64,000 nucleotides of DNA from Halpernia frigidisoli. Lineage in GTDB: Bacteria > Bacteroidota > Bacteroidia > Flavobacteriales > Weeksellaceae. The first letter of the stretch is position 1. The number at the start of each line of letters is the position of its first letter. Positions 47,686 to 53,817 of this stretch are shown here, one piece after another. The stretch lies in the NCBI RefSeq assembly GCF_900113805.1, contig NZ_FOQT01000001.1, positions 722,411-786,410 on the forward strand. The letters are read 5' to 3'. A program made the translations under genes and the position numbers. A model generated the notes under the pieces. That model saw only the letters and a program-made list of their open reading frames with translations, searched no databases and had not been told where the DNA came from.

Positions 47686-50124
47686 TTAGTAAATCTTCGG
47701 AAATTTATCGGGATTTGCTTCGTTAAAAACGTTATAAACAGTTTCAACCATATCATCAACGGAAGGTTTACTGAAATAATCGCCATCTGTGCCATAAGCC
47801 GGACGATGGTTTTTTGCGGTTAAAGTAACCGGTTCAGAATCCAGATATTTAAAGGCTTTTTGCACTTCCAAAACCTGCTGTAAAATAAAAGCGGATGCTC
47901 CACCTTCAACATCTTCATCAATTATTACTAAACGATTTGTTTTTTGCAAACTTTTTTTAATATTATGTTCCAAATCAAAAGGAATTAACGATTGAACATC
48001 AATAACTTCCGCGGAAATCTCTAATTTTTCTAATTGTTCTGCAGCGTCCATAACTAACCTCCACGTTGATCCGTAAGAAATAAGCGTGACGTCTTTTCCT
48101 TCTTTGGTTATTTCAATTTTACCGACTGGGACCATAAATTCCCCAATATTATCTGGTTGTTTTTCTTTTAATCTGTAACCGTTTAAAGGTTCGATGATTA
48201 TACAAGGCTCATCACTTTGCAACATCGTGTTGTAAAAACCAGCAGCTTTTGTTAGATTTCTCGGTGTCAAAACCAAAATTCCTTTACAAAGATTTAAAAT
48301 TCCTGCCATTGGAGAACCGGAATGCCAAATTCCTTCTAATCGATGTCCACGAGTCCTTATAATTACCGGCGCTTTTTGTCCGCCTCTTGTTCTGTACTGA
48401 ACTGTTGCCAAATCATCGCTCATTCCCTGCAAACAATATAAAACGTAATCTAAATATTGGATCTCTGCAATTGGTCTTAAACCTCGCATTGCCAAACCAA
48501 TTCCTTGTCCTAAAATTGTTGCTTCGCGAATACCCGTATCTGCAATTCTTAAACTGCCATATTTTTCCTGTAAACCTTCTAAACCTTGATTTACATCACC
48601 GATATTTCCTGCATCTTCACCAAAAACCAAAGCTTCAGGATATTTTTCGAAGATTTTGTCAAAATTATTTCGCACAACAACTCTACCGTCAACGATTTCT
48701 GAATTTTCGGAAAAAGAGGGAGATATTTCTTCAATATTAGTTGCTTTCCATTGCGATTGTGAATACAAATGTGATGAATAATTTTCTTTCTCTTGTTTAA
48801 AGATCTGCGAATATTTTTCTAAAAGAATATTTCTGTTTTCACTTTTTGAGTTTCTTGTCAAAAGTAAAGATTGGCGCAAAAGATGAAAAATATCTTTTTT
48901 TGATTTTCCCACTTTCTTATCAAAAATATCAAGAATTTGGGCAACTTCATTCTCACTTTCATTCAATTTTTTAACCAAAGGAAGAATCTCATTTTGCAAA
49001 TCGCTTATAGATTTTTGATAATTTTCCCAGGCTATTTTTTGACCTGCTTTTACATATTTTTTTGCTTCATCTTCAATTGCATTTAATTCTTCAGCATTTG
49101 CTAAAAAAACTTCCTTTTCATCTATTTCAATAGAATAATTGAGGATCCATTCTTTAAATTTATTTAAACAGTCAAACTCCTGTTCCCAACTTAATCGTTG
49201 TTCATTTTTATATCGTTCATGTGATCCTGAAGTTGAATGACCTTGAGGTTGAGTCACTTCAATAACATGCACTAAAACCGGAACTGATTCTGTACGAGCA
49301 AAATGTTCAGCTTTTGCATAAGCTTCTAAAAGTTGCGGATAGTCCCAAGCATTGACCTGAATAATTTCACAGCCTTGTTGTTCACCCTCTTTTCTTTGAT
49401 AGCCGGAAAGCATTTCAGAAATATCTGCTTTACCTCTTTGTTCTGACGTTGGGACAGAAATTCCGTAACCGTCGTCCCAGATTGAAATTATCATTGGGAC
49501 CTGTAATGCACAGGCTGCATTTAAAGTTTCAAAAAAAAGTCCTTCCGCTGTGGAAGCATCTCCGATTGTTCCAAAAGCAACCTCTTGTCCGTTGTTGGAA
49601 AATTTTTCAGAACCATCAAATCTTACTTCTTTATATACTTTCGAAGCCAAAGCTAAACCTAAAAGTCGTGGCATTTGTCCGGCAGTCGGTGAAATATCAG
49701 CAGAACTGTTTTTTTGCTCCATTAAATTTTTCCAGCTTCCGTCTTCGTTCAGACTTCTCGTTCCATAATGACCGTTCATCTGTCTTCCCGCAGACGCTGG
49801 CTCTCTTAAAATACTGGTATCTGCGTAAAGCTGTGCAAAAAAACTTTCAATAGAAACTGCATCAATTGCTAAGGAAAAAGTTTGATCACGGTAATATCCT
49901 GAGCGGAAATCTCCATTTTTGAAAACTTTCGACATTGCTAACTGTGGTAATTCTTTTCCGTCACCAAAAATGCCAAACTTAGCTTTACCTGTAAGAACTT
50001 CTCTTCTACCTAAATAAGACATTTCGCGGGAAATCCTACCTAACTTATAATCATCTAAAATGTTTTTTTTAAATTCCTGAAAAGATAATTGCTGAGTTTC
50101 TATAAAGGTGTTTTGCATAAACAA
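47686..50124 (-). CDS. fused alpha/beta E1 component of a 2-oxoacid dehydrogenase (TPP-dependent)
   Basis: The N-terminal half has the E1-alpha TPP-binding motif (GDASTAEGLFFETLN). The C-terminal half is a transketolase-like E1-beta. A single 812-aa ORF of this kind is typical of Bacteroidetes. Confidence 0.8.
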   Translation of the reverse strand: MFMQNTFIETQQLSFQEFKKNILDDYKLGRISREMSYLGRREVLTGKAKFGIFGDGKELPQLAMSKVFKNGDFRSGYYRDQTFSLAIDAVSIESFFAQLYADTSILREPASAGRQMNGHYGTRSLNEDGSWKNLMEQKNSSADISPTAGQMPRLLGLALASKVYKEVRFDGSEKFSNNGQEVAFGTIGDASTAEGLFFETLNAACALQVPMIISIWDDGYGISVPTSEQRGKADISEMLSGYQRKEGEQQGCEIIQVNAWDYPQLLEAYAKAEHFARTESVPVLVHVIEVTQPQGHSTSGSHERYKNEQRLSWEQEFDCLNKFKEWILNYSIEIDEKEVFLANAEELNAIEDEAKKYVKAGQKIAWENYQKSISDLQNEILPLVKKLNESENEVAQILDIFDKKVGKSKKDIFHLLRQSLLLTRNSKSENRNILLEKYSQIFKQEKENYSSHLYSQSQWKATNIEEISPSFSENSEIVDGRVVVRNNFDKIFEKYPEALVFGEDAGNIGDVNQGLEGLQEKYGSLRIADTGIREATILGQGIGLAMRGLRPIAEIQYLDYVLYCLQGMSDDLATVQYRTRGGQKAPVIIRTRGHRLEGIWHSGSPMAGILNLCKGILVLTPRNLTKAAGFYNTMLQSDEPCIIIEPLNGYRLKEKQPDNIGEFMVPVGKIEITKEGKDVTLISYGSTWRLVMDAAEQLEKLEISAEVIDVQSLIPFDLEHNIKKSLQKTNRLVIIDEDVEGGASAFILQQVLEVQKAFKYLDSEPVTLTAKNHRPAYGTDGDYFSKPSVDDMVETVYNVFNEANPDKFPKIY

Positions 50125-50247
50125 GTGATTTTTACAAATATAATTAATTAGGAAATAATACTAAAATATAAATTTTAATAGATATTTATATTTTGAAATT
50201 TTTATAAACGCTCAAAAACCCGGTAATTTGTAGTAATATTTTTAAAA

Positions 50248-50544
50248 ATGAAAGAAAAATCTCCACATATATTGAATGCATCTTCTAATCTATTAGGATT
50301 TTGCTTATTGATAATTACTTCTTTGAAAATAACTAATTCTGATAAAGCAACTTTTTTGGACGAATTTGCAGGAGTTGCAGGGATTTTTTTCACAATAAGC
50401 TGTATTTTTTCTTTTCTGGCAATACGAACGAATAATCACAAACAAATACTGGTATTTGAATCTATTGCGGATTATCTGTTTTTGGGCGCTTTGGTTTGTA
50501 TTTTTTTTGCCGTCGGAATGTTATTTTTAAAACTTTTTCCTTAA
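50248..50544 (+). CDS. hypothetical membrane protein
   Basis: It has three hydrophobic helices. It converges on the small-peptide gene array. Confidence 0.4.
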   Translation: MKEKSPHILNASSNLLGFCLLIITSLKITNSDKATFLDEFAGVAGIFFTISCIFSFLAIRTNNHKQILVFESIADYLFLGALVCIFFAVGMLFLKLFP

Positions 50545-50550
50545 AAAAAA

Positions 50551-50608
50551 CCTCCTTTGCGTTCAGCAAAGGAGATCAACACAAATGATGAAAAAAAATT
50601 TATTGTTT
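50551..50608 (+). repeat. composite repeat, copy A (variant hairpin + conserved core)
   Basis: Hairpin CTCCTTTGC-GTTCA-GCAAAGGAG is followed by ATCAACACAAATGATGAAAAAAAATTTATTGTTT. Confidence 0.7.
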
Positions 50609-50650
50609 AGGGGGTTAATGTATTATATAAAATCATTACTTGTGATAAAA

Positions 50651-50714
50651 AACCTCTCCAGTAATTGTTGACTGGAGAGATCAACACAAATGATGAAAAA
50701 AAATTTATTGTTTG
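50651..50714 (+). repeat. composite repeat, copy B
   Basis: Hairpin CCTCTCCAGTAATTGTTGACTGGAGAG is followed by ATCAACACAAATGATGAAAAAAAATTTATTGTTT. Confidence 0.75.
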
Positions 50715-50757
50715 AGATATTACTTCAATTTACTCTTTTCAAAATTTGTGAAAAAAA

Positions 50758-50818
50758 ATCTCTCCAGTGATTTGTTGACTGGAGAGATCAACACAAATGA
50801 TGAAAAAAAATATTGTTA
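50758..50818 (+). repeat. composite repeat, copy C (abuts the stop of peptide gene 1)
   Basis: Hairpin TCTCTCCAGTGATTTGTTGACTGGAGAG is followed by ATCAACACAAATGATGAAAAAAAATATTGTTAAT. On the minus strand it forms a hairpin plus T-run, that is, an intrinsic terminator. Confidence 0.75.
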
Positions 50819-51010
50819 ATCCCGCGGAGGTGTTATTGCATCTCCTAAAGAGTTGTCTGTATGATCAAATTTTACATAATTAGAATCTTTACTAATTTGT
50901 TTTTTCTCTAATTTATTTTTTGCAGCTTTTAAACTATTTCCCTGCTCTTCACGAAAAGAAACTAATGTTAATGATGCTACTGCTATACTTAGGTAAATAA
51001 ACTTTTTCAT
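50816..51010 (-). CDS. small secreted peptide, paralog 1 (signal peptide + conserved C-terminal ...YVKFDHTDNSLGDAITPPRD)
   Basis: The 64-aa product starts MKKFIYLSIAVASLTLVS. The track ORF is trimmed to this Met at 51010. There are three paralogs in tandem. Confidence 0.6.
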   Translation of the reverse strand: MKKFIYLSIAVASLTLVSFREEQGNSLKAAKNKLEKKQISKDSNYVKFDHTDNSLGDAITPPRD

Positions 51011-51073
51011 AATAATTTTTATAAAGGTTTCTAAAATATAATTCTGAGTATTTTTCACATTCGCTTTAAAAAA

Positions 51074-51133
51074 CCTCTCCAGCTATTGTTGACTGGAGAG
51101 ATCAACACAAATGATGAAAAAAAATATTATTAA
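51074..51133 (+). repeat. composite repeat, copy D (abuts the stop of peptide gene 2)
   Basis: Hairpin CCTCTCCAGCTATTGTTGACTGGAGAG is followed by ATCAACACAAATGATGAAAAAAAATATTATTAAT. Confidence 0.75.
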
Positions 51134-51324
51134 TCTCTCGGCGGCGTTGTTGGATTGCCTAAAGAGTTATCTGTATGATCGAATTTAACGTAATTTGTAA
51201 TCGTGCTTGTTTTGTTCTCTTGCGGACTAATAGTTACAGGTTTCAAACTATTTCCTTCCTGCTCACGAAATGATACTAAACTTAGAGATGCTATGCCGAT
51301 ACTTAGGTAAATAAACTTTTTCAT
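51130..51324 (-). CDS. small secreted peptide, paralog 2 (...NYVKFDHTDNSLGNPTTPPRD)
   Basis: The 64-aa product starts MKKFIYLSIGIASLSLVS, and the C-terminal 20 aa are nearly identical to paralog 1. Confidence 0.6.
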   Translation of the reverse strand: MKKFIYLSIGIASLSLVSFREQEGNSLKPVTISPQENKTSTITNYVKFDHTDNSLGNPTTPPRD

Positions 51325-51390
51325 AATAATGATTTTATAATGATTTTTAAACTTAAAATTTTTAGTATTTTCTTTTGTGTTTTAAAAAAA

Positions 51391-51451
51391 CCTCTCCAGT
51401 AATTGTTGACTGGAGAGATCAACACAAATGATGAAAAAAATTTTATTGTTT
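51391..51451 (+). repeat. composite repeat, copy E
   Basis: Hairpin CCTCTCCAGTAATTGTTGACTGGAGAG is followed by ATCAACACAAATGATGAAAAAAATTTTATTGTTT. The following GGGGTTAAT spacer resembles the one after copy A. Confidence 0.75.
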
Positions 51452-51496
51452 AAGGGGTTAATTTTATTTTGTAAATGTCATAATTTGTTAAAAAAA

Positions 51497-51553
51497 TCTC
51501 TCCAGTGATTTGTTGACTGGAGAGATCAACACAAATGATGAAAAAAAATGCTT
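51497..51553 (+). repeat. composite repeat, copy F (abuts the stop of peptide gene 3)
   Basis: Hairpin TCTCTCCAGTGATTTGTTGACTGGAGAG is followed by ATCAACACAAATGATGAAAAAAAATG. Confidence 0.75.
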
Positions 51554-51565
51554 TATTACTGCGAA

Positions 51566-51784
51566 TTAATCTTGTGGTGGTCTTGCAGGATCACCATCTC
51601 TTGCAGTTGAATTGAAATTACTATATTCAGTGGAATTATTTATTGAATTTGAACCATCATTAAATAATTTTTTTTCTGTTCCAGGATTTTGACCGTTAAT
51701 TGCTTGTGTTAATTCATCTTGTTCTCTACAAGATACTAATGATAAAGAAAAAAGTGCGATGCTTAGGTAGATAATTTTTTTCAT
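51566..51784 (-). CDS. small secreted peptide, paralog 3 (lipoprotein-type signal LSLVSC; C-terminus ...DGDPARPPQD)
   Basis: The 72-aa product starts MKKIIYLSIALFSLSLVSC. The track ORF's Asn-rich upstream extension is rejected. Confidence 0.55.
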   Translation of the reverse strand: MKKIIYLSIALFSLSLVSCREQDELTQAINGQNPGTEKKLFNDGSNSINNSTEYSNFNSTARDGDPARPPQD

Positions 51785-51798
51785 AATTTTTGGATTTA

Positions 51799-51900
51799 AA
51801 TTTGTGTTGTTAAAAGATAATGTTGTGTTGTTGTTGTTAACTGAATTTGTGTTGTTGTTAAAATTTTTTTCTTCCATCATAAAAATGTTTGTGTTATTTG
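51799..51900. promoter_or_regulatory. divergent promoter region with direct repeats of the GTGTTG (CAACAC) motif
   Basis: ATTTGTGTTGTT at 51799, TGTTGTGTTGTTGTTGTT at 51821, ATTTGTGTTGTTGTT at 51846 and TGTTTGTGTTATT at 51887 all carry the motif, and AAAACACAAATGTT at 52053 sits just upstream of the regulator start. Confidence 0.45.
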
Positions 51901-52089
51901 ATGAGCCAAAACTATAAACTTTTACTGCTACCACCAAATATTTAAAATGCTATAGGTCTATTATCATAAATTCTGACTCTTAAAACATAAAAAATTAATA
52001 GTAATTTCAAAAAAAAAACGTTAATTTTGCAAATGAAGATCGTAAAAACATGAAAACACAAATGTTAACAAATTGATTATTAGCATTTT

Positions 52090-53817
52090 ATGATAAAGAC
52101 TAAAATATTATTTTTTGTATTAATATTTTTTAACATTTTTTTAAGTATTTCTGCTCAAAAAAGCAAACCAACTGATTTAACTTATAAGCAAATTGAAGAA
52201 AAAATAGATTTACTACATAAAGATTCCACAAAAATGTGGAAGATGATTAATCTATACATTCAAAAATCAAAGCAAGAGAGAAATTTTGAAACTTTAATTT
52301 ACGCTTATAGATATTCTACCTTATATTCTACGTTTCCTAGAAATATTGCTTTCGCAGATAGCGCTCTTTCAATTGCAAAGAAAAGTAATAATCCTGAATT
52401 CCTAAGCAGTGCTTATGTCAACAGAGGAAAAACCTGGCTAGATGAAAAAAAATACCAAAAATCTTTGGATGATTTTCTTTCCGCTATTACATACTCAAAT
52501 AAAACAGGTGATGACTATACTACTTACAAGACTAAATATTACATTGCGCAAAATAAAATTTATTTAGGATTATACGATGAAGCTCAGGAAGAGCTTAGAC
52601 AATGTATTGAATATTTTAAAAAAAATATCAAAACAACTGGTCTTGGAAAAGACAATGAGATGTATTATTTGTACTCATTAATGAGTTCTATAGATACTAA
52701 TTCAAAATTATTAAAACAGAAAGAAAATAAACCACTTTTAGATGAAGCGTTTGATTACATAACTGTAAATAATCTTTCCGAGTATCTTCCCTATTTTATT
52801 ACATCTCAAGGCGTTGATTCTTATAATAATAAAAACTATAATTTAGCCATATTAAAATTGAAACAGGCTCTATCTTTATTTAAGGATAACAGTTTTCATT
52901 ATACAGCTAATTTCTATCTTGGAATGTCTTATTGGCAAGAAGGAAGAAAGGACGAAGCAGTTCTATACTTTAAATTGATTGACGCTGATTATTCAAAAAG
53001 CGGAAAACTTGATCCTCATTTTAGACCAACGTACGAATATCTCATTAAATATTTTCAAAATTCTGGCAATAAAACCTTGCAACTTCAATATGTGAAAAAA
53101 CTAATGGAGCTTGACAGAAATTACGAGAAAAACTTTAAATATCTTTACACAACCATTAATAAAGAATATGATACTAAAAAGCTGCAACAGGAAAAAGATC
53201 GATTAGAAAGTTCTCTTCAAAGACAGCGAGTATTCTATTTCATTCTTATAATGCTCATTATTAGTGCAGCGGGATTTTTAATTTACAGATTTCTTAAGCT
53301 CCAAAGAAAATATCGGGAACAGTTTGAGAATATAATTCATGCGGATGAAACTAAGGATAGCATTACCTATCAGTTACAAACAGTCCAAAGTCCTAAAAAT
53401 TCTGAAACAGAAGAAATTTATTATGATAATATTCCAGGTATTAATCCGCAAATTGTTGAACAAATTGTAAAAGAGCTGGAAAAATTTGAAAGAGAAAAGC
53501 GTTATTTAGATCCTCAGATTTCCCAGAAATCATTAAGTGAAGATTTTGGTACAAATTCCAGTTATCTTTCCAAAATTATCAATACTTATAAAGATAAAAA
53601 TTTCAATCATTATGTAAATGATCTGCGAATTGATCACACCTTAAATCTTCTTAAAACAAAAAGGAAGTATTTAAATAAAGACGTTAAAGAACTCGCAACG
53701 ATTTCCGGATTTAACAGCACAGACAGTTTTAGTAAGAATTTCCAGAGAAAATTTGATATGAAACCAAGTCAGTTTATCAAAATGATGAAAGAAGAAGCTA
53801 GAATTTCCGCTCAATAA
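52090..53817 (+). CDS. membrane-anchored one-component regulator with a signal peptide, a predicted extracytoplasmic TPR domain, one TM helix and an AraC-type HTH
   Basis: It has a cleavable signal peptide (FLSISAQ) and TPR-like repeats over about aa 30-360. A TM helix (VFYFILIMLIISAAGFLIY) follows. The C-terminus is an HTH_AraC domain (GFNSTDSFSKNFQRKFDMKPSQF). Confidence 0.7.
   Translation: MIKTKILFFVLIFFNIFLSISAQKSKPTDLTYKQIEEKIDLLHKDSTKMWKMINLYIQKSKQERNFETLIYAYRYSTLYSTFPRNIAFADSALSIAKKSNNPEFLSSAYVNRGKTWLDEKKYQKSLDDFLSAITYSNKTGDDYTTYKTKYYIAQNKIYLGLYDEAQEELRQCIEYFKKNIKTTGLGKDNEMYYLYSLMSSIDTNSKLLKQKENKPLLDEAFDYITVNNLSEYLPYFITSQGVDSYNNKNYNLAILKLKQALSLFKDNSFHYTANFYLGMSYWQEGRKDEAVLYFKLIDADYSKSGKLDPHFRPTYEYLIKYFQNSGNKTLQLQYVKKLMELDRNYEKNFKYLYTTINKEYDTKKLQQEKDRLESSLQRQRVFYFILIMLIISAAGFLIYRFLKLQRKYREQFENIIHADETKDSITYQLQTVQSPKNSETEEIYYDNIPGINPQIVEQIVKELEKFEREKRYLDPQISQKSLSEDFGTNSSYLSKIINTYKDKNFNHYVNDLRIDHTLNLLKTKRKYLNKDVKELATISGFNSTDSFSKNFQRKFDMKPSQFIKMMKEEARISAQ

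Follow-up and report, generated by a model that had tools for sequence, protein, structure and literature searches.

To our knowledge, riboregulation in the Bacteroidota is known almost entirely from gut Bacteroides, and we know of neither Hfq nor ProQ in this phylum. In the literature that we searched, we found no described conserved family of small RNAs (sRNAs) in the Flavobacteriia or Weeksellaceae, and no paper mentioning the motif described here or RNA work on Halpernia. The closest described systems are the FopS/GibS sRNAs of Bacteroides thetaiotaomicron, which are multicopy and use a seed that pairs near the start codons of envelope-protein mRNAs (PMC11697453). One FopS member is derived from a 3' untranslated region (3'UTR), and the FopS copies are dispersed and have their own promoters (PMC11697453). 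Here we describe six copies of a terminator-linked unit, located at 50536-51552 in minus-strand orientation, in a 64-kb window of Halpernia frigidisoli ("the window" being the whole stretch of DNA analyzed), where they are interleaved with genes for small secreted peptides. Judged from its sequence and conservation, the unit is a locus-specific, strongly selected RNA element and not a generic repeat, and it is probably a base-pairing one, linked to a terminator and without a match in Rfam. Our preferred reading, held tentatively and with somewhat less than even confidence, is that it represents a seed-plus-terminator module, that is, a 3'UTR-derived or sibling sRNA whose seed is antisense to translation-start-like sequence.

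Anatomy, conservation and ancestry of the unit

On the RNA strand, each unit is laid out as U8-9 CAUCAUUUGUGUU, followed by a hairpin and a U-run. Its minus-strand sequence starts with a U-run, continues with CAUCAUUUGUGUUGAUC and a hairpin of 11-12 bp, and closes with U6-8, which is the form of an intrinsic terminator, and on the plus strand it reads A6-8, hairpin, GATCAACACAAATGATGA7-8. A first-pass annotation of the window had reported six copies of the unit, and all six were confirmed: the 23-mer ATCAACACAAATGATGAAAAAAA has six matches in the window (<=3 mismatches), all within 50575-51547, where shuffled sequences lead one to expect none, and with a covariance model of the unit these copies reach 80-84 bits, compared with 22 bits for the next best match in the window. 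The hairpin types that the annotation had assigned to the individual copies also hold, to which we add that copy D has a loop variant of its own, CAGCTATTG. Its minus-strand order of core, hairpin and T-run is likewise present in every copy (T6-8) and is terminator-like. The hairpins of all six units fold at -16 to -18 kcal/mol, with the core predicted to be unpaired. Stems measure 11-12 bp, loops 5-9 nt and U-tracts 6-8 nt, and the units thus have the stem-loop containing GC pairs, immediate U-tract and position downstream of a gene that characterize intrinsic terminators; a terminator consensus scan calls three of the six (A, B and E).

Along the minus strand, the order is g3-F-E-g2-D-g1-C-B-A, where g1 to g3 are the peptide genes. 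Units F, D and C start 17, 5 and 5 nt past the stop codons of g3, g2 and g1, respectively, and units E, B and A stand alone, without a peptide gene of their own. The extra copies had been described as stacked in two doublets, which is correct for F-E; the other group proved to be a triplet, C-B-A. Units A and E each have a GGGGTTAAT spacer ahead of them in the RNA sense. Across the loci of Halpernia and of two further genera, Kaistella and Cloacibacterium, the motif lies 0-4 nt from the stem and 5-40 nt from the stop codon, which indicates coupling to the terminator rather than to a ribosome that is terminating.

Orthologous loci from eight further Halpernia lineages were retrieved via the flanking genes, and all eight carry units in the same place and orientation. 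There are three units in Halpernia sp. ET15-04 (L004) and in a metagenomic, Halpernia-like lineage (L008), four in Halpernia sp. GG3 (L017), two in one metagenomic lineage (L018), at least two in another whose contig ends within the array (L006) and eight in H. humi (L010; two gene-attached and six stand-alone). One lineage is represented by two contigs that are >99% identical, also in their flanks, with three units in the first (L014, 2326-2649) and five in the second (L020, 1912-2427); either copy-number variation or assembly collapse of the tandem repeat accounts for this difference. Contigs L006, L007, L011-L013 and L019 end inside the array, and L019, a ninth contig, does so within its first unit and gives no count.

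Over these distances, 4-fold degenerate sites of the neighboring E1 dehydrogenase gene are only 38-47% identical and are therefore saturated. Among 22 non-identical Halpernia units (aligned with MAFFT), the stretch T8 CATCA[T/A]TTGTGTT[G/A]A[T/C]CTC is invariant or nearly so, whereas the hairpin sequence changes. The stem helix is 96.7% paired in this alignment and shows compensatory double changes at 7 of 11 pairs (a slid-partner control gives ~50%), and RNAalifold recovers the same helix and predicts an unpaired core. Selection on the core itself, which the first-pass annotation had proposed, is thus supported by its invariance where 4-fold sites are saturated and by the covariation of the stems. 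The alignment of orthologous loci that it had suggested as a check finds the core nearly invariant in Halpernia and extends it to Kaistella and Cloacibacterium.

The stems also distinguish old types of unit. The A-type stem (CTCCTTTGC.. in H. frigidisoli) terminates the array in most other Halpernia loci, with H. humi and L018 having their own variants of the terminal stem. The A-type unit is without an open reading frame (ORF) in any Halpernia lineage, yet its core and stem are both kept, which argues for a function independent of upstream coding sequence. Because at least two old unit lineages carry the same core, recent duplication or gene conversion can be ruled out as the cause of its conservation.

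Full-length homologs of the regulator gene that lies divergent to the peptide genes, with ~50% identity, occur in other Weeksellaceae. We inspected two such loci, from Kaistella faecalis and Cloacibacterium sp. TD35, both of which are syntenic. K. faecalis has one peptide gene, and downstream of it come TAACCCCTAAAACTAAATA-T9-CATCATTTGTGTT-TGG and then a new hairpin with a T-run. Each of the two peptide genes of Cloacibacterium has T8-CATCGTTTGTGTT-TT behind it, again with a new hairpin and T-run after that. A covariance model built from Halpernia only scores the Kaistella element at 64 bits (E ~1e-10) and the Cloacibacterium elements at 49 and 45 bits. With these sequences added, compensatory changes are seen at 10 of 11 stem pairs and 97.6% of cells are paired, in an alignment that was fitted to the model and hence leans towards structure. 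The part that is invariant across genera is U8-9 CAUC[A/G][U/A]UUGUGUU (21 nt), and cross-genus conservation ends before the stem.

Since intact peptide genes of both Kaistella and Cloacibacterium carry the motif once in their 3'UTR, the ancestral arrangement is, on this comparison, a single copy in the 3'UTR of each peptide gene, and the stand-alone tandem copies are an elaboration of Halpernia. An origin of the units by duplication of gene-start-plus-terminator segments, as first proposed, is therefore not upheld. The pre-core segment of units A and E, ATTAACCCC(C/T)TAAACAATAAA, which contains the GGGGTTAAT spacer, matches the sequence right after the stop codon of the Kaistella peptide gene, suggesting that these two units may be surviving 3' ends (stop codon plus 3'UTR relic) of lost peptide genes. 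The one piece of evidence for decay of the peptide ORFs is the TAACCCC..AAAC relic behind the stop codon, apparent when the sequences are set against Kaistella; local alignments of the stand-alone spacers revealed no 5' gene remnants beyond what shuffled sequences gave, except in one case (p = 0.025).

The unit is also confined to its locus. Dozens of copies at unrelated genes, which the first-pass annotation had named as the sign of a generic repeat and which would be expected of a REP or MITE family, were found neither in scans of the window nor by an exact 20-mer search of 185,579 genomes (one per species). That search returned the syntenic locus of Halpernia sp. ET15-04, with its three tandem copies, and otherwise only three unrelated single matches. 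The genome and metagenome-contig scans were both exact-match scans; the H. frigidisoli genome itself was not returned despite its six matches in the window, presumably because this stretch is masked or the collection lacks the genome, and the absence of further copies elsewhere in this genome is not firmly established by the 20-mer scan. The scan patterns began with (G)ATC, which lies outside the part conserved across genera, so that they were unable to reveal targets or distant copies. Among the contig-scan results, L001, L002 and L005 are chance matches. The same is probably true of the 20-mer match in L003, an unrelated Bacteroidetes metagenome-assembled genome, although its context is oddly similar: an exact core complement, AATCAACACAAATGATGAAAAAA, lies at 2187-2231, where a gene for a 147-aa lipoprotein has its 3'UTR, immediately ahead of the terminator hairpin of that gene. 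A comparison of 49500-52500 with Rfam (cmscan, E up to 5) gave only spurious microRNA and small nucleolar RNA matches.

Candidate functions of the unit

In the reading that we prefer, the minus-strand RNA of a unit would present a conserved, unpaired 21-nt motif followed within 0-4 nt by an intrinsic terminator, and would form the 3' end of transcripts from the secreted-peptide operon, which is presumably controlled by the divergent TPR/AraC regulator. The motif would act as a base-pairing seed, its complement resembling a Bacteroidota translation-initiation region. Peptide-mRNA 3' ends would serve as sRNAs that mask the start regions of one or more target mRNAs, and so would the stand-alone units, once transcription reads through a terminator into them or processing releases them. 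In Halpernia, the seed-plus-terminator ends would have outlasted their decaying peptide ORFs and multiplied to 2-8 copies, resulting in a higher dose. The transcription and processing of the units, their action by base-pairing and the identity of the targets are what we infer here. The model is preferred because the units share the design of FopS/GibS and of 3'UTR-derived sRNAs: a conserved stretch that is unpaired, lies directly before a terminator, is multicopy and is antisense to a start region. Like the 3'UTR-derived sRNAs, the units have a putative terminator-adjacent seed that is conserved above coding sequence and flanks, with an invariant core compared with 35-58% identity among the peptides.

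The complement of the motif is AACACAAAUG-AUG-AAAAAAAA, which resembles the start region of a Met-Lys-Lys protein; between genera, the differences are at positions -3 and -2, counted from its AUG. The first-pass annotation had seen the plus-strand core as mimicking the start of the peptide genes. This likeness is better read as antisense complementarity to a translation-initiation region. The plus-strand ORFs starting in the core are conserved neither in frame nor in length.

Predicted pairing partners occur within the locus itself. The leader of the first peptide gene in H. frigidisoli contains two exact CAACACAAAT 10-mers (51800-51809 and 51845-51854) complementary to the core, and eight of the nine copies of CAACACAAAT in the window lie in the unit locus. 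The predicted duplex with this leader (-18.8 kcal/mol) was equaled by none of 300 shuffles and is the fifth best of 8,528 windows when the units' own antisense is excluded, and the corresponding pairing is nominally significant in L004 (p = 0.013). A perfect 10-nt core complement, AACACAAATG, is kept in the regulator 5'UTR in five of eight Halpernia lineages. Among 80 real start regions, those of the Halpernia regulator and first peptide fill most of the top ranks of predicted duplexes (-15.6, -15.4 and several at ~-12.5, compared with a typical value of ~-8).

Several observations weigh against a trans-acting seed. Pairing with the first-peptide leader is not significant in the other three lineages tested (p = 0.09-0.14), pairing with the regulator start is poor in Kaistella (-6.5) and Cloacibacterium (-8.6 kcal/mol), a duplex scan of the 64-kb window revealed no credible trans target, and the predicted pairing consists largely of A/U pairs. 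The Bacteroidota promoter consensus is TTTG at -33 and TAnnTTTG at -7, and on reading the sequences we saw no TAnnTTTG box before the stand-alone units. Read-through or processing would then be their only source, and the argument from dosage is weaker for it, above all in the case of the six stand-alone copies of H. humi. A sigma-70-type promoter scan showed no enrichment, the sigma-70 consensus not being applicable to Bacteroidota. Tandem copy number, moreover, may vary neutrally or be mis-assembled, as in the case of three versus five units. Feedback on the regulator or peptide mRNAs, as predicted from these duplexes, is a possibility at the level of Halpernia and not a conserved function, and any target that is conserved must be encoded at another place in the genome.

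The main alternative, somewhat less probable than the preferred reading, is a cis-acting role, along the lines of the binding site in the 3'UTR or the control of read-through that the first-pass annotation had suggested. Here the motif would be bound, within the 3'UTR, by a trans-encoded small RNA or by a protein such as an RNA binder of the RRM or Csp type, and would tune termination and read-through or 3'-end stability such that all terminators of the operon respond together. Such a site would fit the constant fusion of the motif to a terminator (0-4 nt), at every terminator of the operon. It would also fit the dependence of downstream genes on read-through: in H. humi, only 19 nt separate the start of the second peptide gene from the T-run before it, which together with the lack of a promoter box before the stand-alone units means that terminator read-through must occur. 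The same holds for the failure of the window duplex scan and the cross-genus regulator starts to yield a conserved trans target. However, conservation across genera stops before the stem, leaving no direct competition with hairpin formation, and the module encodes no RNA-binding protein. An alternative hairpin, AUCA/UGAU, is broken by an uncompensated G-to-A variant in units of L014, L006 and L012; we rejected an antiterminator hairpin within the core, as this 4-bp alternative is not conserved. ORF-less units, which have nothing immediately upstream to regulate, are nevertheless conserved (A-type) and amplified. Nor do the units resemble protein-dependent antiterminators (RAT/LicT, PyrR or TRAP), given that conservation ends before the stem and that the module holds no gene for a binder, which could be encoded elsewhere.

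We consider it quite unlikely that the units act at the level of DNA. They would then be operator copies recognized by the TPR/AraC regulator or some other DNA-binding protein, and the divergent promoter region would hold the related half-sites AACACAAAT. The half-site sequence is indeed concentrated here, with 9 of its 11 occurrences in the window falling in this 1.5-kb locus, including one in the regulator leader and two in the peptide leader. But the motif is sense in both transcribed leaders and antisense in the units, an arrangement predicted by base-pairing and not by an operator, and RNA is indicated both by the compensatory changes in the stems and by a core-stem-T-run order that is fixed on one strand. 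The unit sites are also located downstream of genes, and the conserved block between the two promoters, TTATCATAAAnAATGA, is unlike the core.

Units within a genome are near-identical, notably in H. humi, copy number differs between near-identical contigs and many contigs break inside the array, all of which would be expected if the units were duplicated terminators maintained by gene conversion, in arrays growing by unequal crossing-over, with no function beyond termination. This explanation is very improbable, as concerted evolution cannot account for identity across species and genera where neutral sites are saturated and stems and flanks have diverged, and as one core sequence is shared by both old types of unit (A-type and CTCT(C/T)CC-type); recent horizontal exchange of the locus is disfavored by the diverged stems and peptide sequences. 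Least probable of all is a generic mobile or dispersed repeat (REP- or MITE-like) or a set of plus-strand small ORFs or type-I-toxin-like genes starting at ATGATGAAAAAAAA: the units are repetitive, palindrome-containing and AT-rich, and the plus-strand ORFs in the window are 25-28 aa long and hydrophobic, but the units are not dispersed and are syntenic in all loci, and ORFs starting in the core range from 7 to 57 aa across loci, with the length of the A-run (7-9) shifting the frame between copies and species, so that a small ORF or type I toxin was rejected for want of a conserved frame and length.

The peptide genes and the divergent regulator

The features of the locus are collected in Table 1. 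The T-run of unit A (50543-50550) abuts the stop codon of a convergent 98-aa gene, whose product has 100% identity with a protein of H. frigidisoli. In several species, an extra hairpin and T-run (for example, AGTGATT..AATCACT TTTT) lies between the stop codon of the last peptide gene and the unit (L014 2617-2650; L010 5977-6020; L004 6795-6838), forming a second terminator-like element outside the unit family.

Table 1 Features of the unit locus in the H. frigidisoli window.
Feature	Position	Strand	Core	Hairpin	Covariance model (bits)	Basis or remarks
Unit A, terminal stand-alone	50536..50602	-	50575-50598	50549-50577 (CTCCTTTGC..GCAAAGGAG type)	80.3	Terminator scan; fold
Segment preceding unit A core, RNA sense AUUAACCCCCUAAACAAUAAA	50599..50619	-				Kept before A-type units in L006, L008, L012 and L017
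Unit B, stand-alone	50638..50707	-	50680-50703	50651-50682	83.6	Terminator scan
Unit C, 3'UTR and terminator of g1	50744..50814	-	50787-50810	50758-50788, palindromic	82.8	Fold
Peptide gene g1	50816..51010	-				64 aa; signal peptide; C-terminus ..PPRD
Unit D, 3'UTR and terminator of g2	51059..51128	-	51101-51124	~51072-51103	81.2	Fold
Peptide gene g2	51130..51324	-				64 aa; signal peptide
Unit E, stand-alone	51376..51445	-	51418-51440 (U-run of 7)	51389-51420	83.5	Terminator scan
Segment preceding unit E core	51441..51462	-				Same type as before unit A
Unit F, 3'UTR and terminator of g3	51482..51552	-	51525-51548	51496-51526	82.2	Fold
Peptide gene g3	51566..51784	-				72 aa; first gene of the operon; lipoprotein-type signal (..LVSC)
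Leader and putative promoter of peptide operon	51785..51938	-				-7 box TAGTTTTG 51914-51907; -33 TTTG 51938-51935
Regulator promoter and 5'UTR	52022..52064	+				-7 box TAATTTTG 52022-52029; core-complementary motif AACACAAATG 52055-52064
Divergent regulator	52090..53817	+				575 aa; N-terminal signal/anchor; TPR; transmembrane segment 381-400; C-terminal AraC-type helix-turn-helix (HTH)

The products of g1-g3 bear signal peptides and end in PPRD or PPQD, and g3 has a weak, below-cutoff match to an N-terminal lipoprotein signal in NCBIfam. Their family is tiny, comprising 39 clusters that are all labeled hypothetical, and no Pfam or NCBIfam model matches it above its curated cut-off. The first-peptide leader of H. 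frigidisoli (51785-51900, minus strand) contains an expanded CAA-rich repeat (AACAACAACACAA..) and an in-frame upstream ATGATG, which makes the start codon of g3 ambiguous (a 104-aa product, P0134, is annotated); in other species this leader is only ~40 nt long. The promoter of the peptide operon, putatively assigned from the Bacteroidota consensus, has boxes that are conserved in eight loci in the alignment of Halpernia loci, and the regulator promoter box is likewise conserved. Between the divergent promoters, at ~51961-51976, the block TTATCATAAAnAATGA is conserved in all eight Halpernia loci and is a candidate operator for the TPR/AraC regulator.

The regulator matches Pfam HTH_18 and TPR_2, and its transmembrane segment was located from the hydropathy profile; the TPR domain is predicted to be extracytoplasmic and the AraC HTH cytoplasmic. 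It is syntenic with the peptide genes in every unit-bearing locus, and the whole module is absent at this position from Chryseobacterium joostei, which indicates that peptides, units and regulator travel together. Across genera, the module (window 50816-53817; L021 3081-9788; L022 3586-5725) encodes pro-peptides with a variable middle and a conserved C-terminus, which is GDPxKPP[RK]D in Halpernia and IVPPPR[K] in Kaistella and Cloacibacterium. It adjoins the E1 dehydrogenase gene in three genera, and Cloacibacterium has three tandem regulator paralogs.

In its gene content, the module looks like a peptide-sensing system. A far-reaching and, in our estimate, improbable extension is that peptides, TPR/AraC regulator and units make up an unrecognized peptide-signaling circuit of the Weeksellaceae, in which the pro-peptides would be sensed by the TPR domain and the transcripts would double as an RNAIII-like riboregulatory output via their 3' anti-start seed, this output being multiplied in Halpernia by modules left from decayed genes. 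Whatever its mode of action, the unit is a short and sharply defined element, found in at least three genera and tied to one orphan module of secreted peptides and a TPR/AraC transmembrane regulator. It offers a testable entry into post-transcriptional control in this class and into the function of a possible peptide-sensing system. The stand-alone copies would furthermore be a clear example of 3' ends outliving their coding sequences, which is one proposed route to new sRNA genes.

Comparison with described systems

Placement after stop codons, the GC-rich 11-12 bp stem, the 5-9 nt loop and the run of 6-8 U are all shared with ordinary intrinsic terminators, but ordinary terminators have no 21-nt sequence upstream of the stem that is invariant across genera. 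On the protein side, the layout of the module is similar to that of RRNPP peptide/TPR pairs, with the difference that the sensor here faces outside. Staphylococcus RNAIII combines small-peptide coding with a base-pairing 3' region, divergent from regulator genes, in a peptide-signaling circuit; unlike the units, to which it is not homologous, it pairs via C-rich hairpin loops and not via a linear U/G-rich stretch.

Near-identical seed-plus-terminator arrays at one locus are also formed by tandem sibling sRNAs such as LhrC1-4 of Listeria and PrrF1/2 of Pseudomonas. Each of these siblings has its own promoter, and they are not homologous to the units. Enterobacterial 3'UTR-derived sRNAs (CpxQ, SroC and GlnZ) share the terminator of their parent mRNA and have a seed just upstream of it that is more conserved than its neighbors, as in the units. 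These RNAs depend on Hfq and RNase E and are single-copy, whereas the units are repeated after each paralog and persist without an ORF.

The FopS/GibS sRNAs show no match to the units in sequence or structure (Rfam, E up to 5). The units are, moreover, arranged in tandem at one locus, attached to peptide genes or left by them, and have no visible promoter. What the units do have in common with FopS/GibS is a single-stranded conserved 5' stretch followed by a terminator hairpin, present in multiple copies, which is a resemblance of design and not homology.

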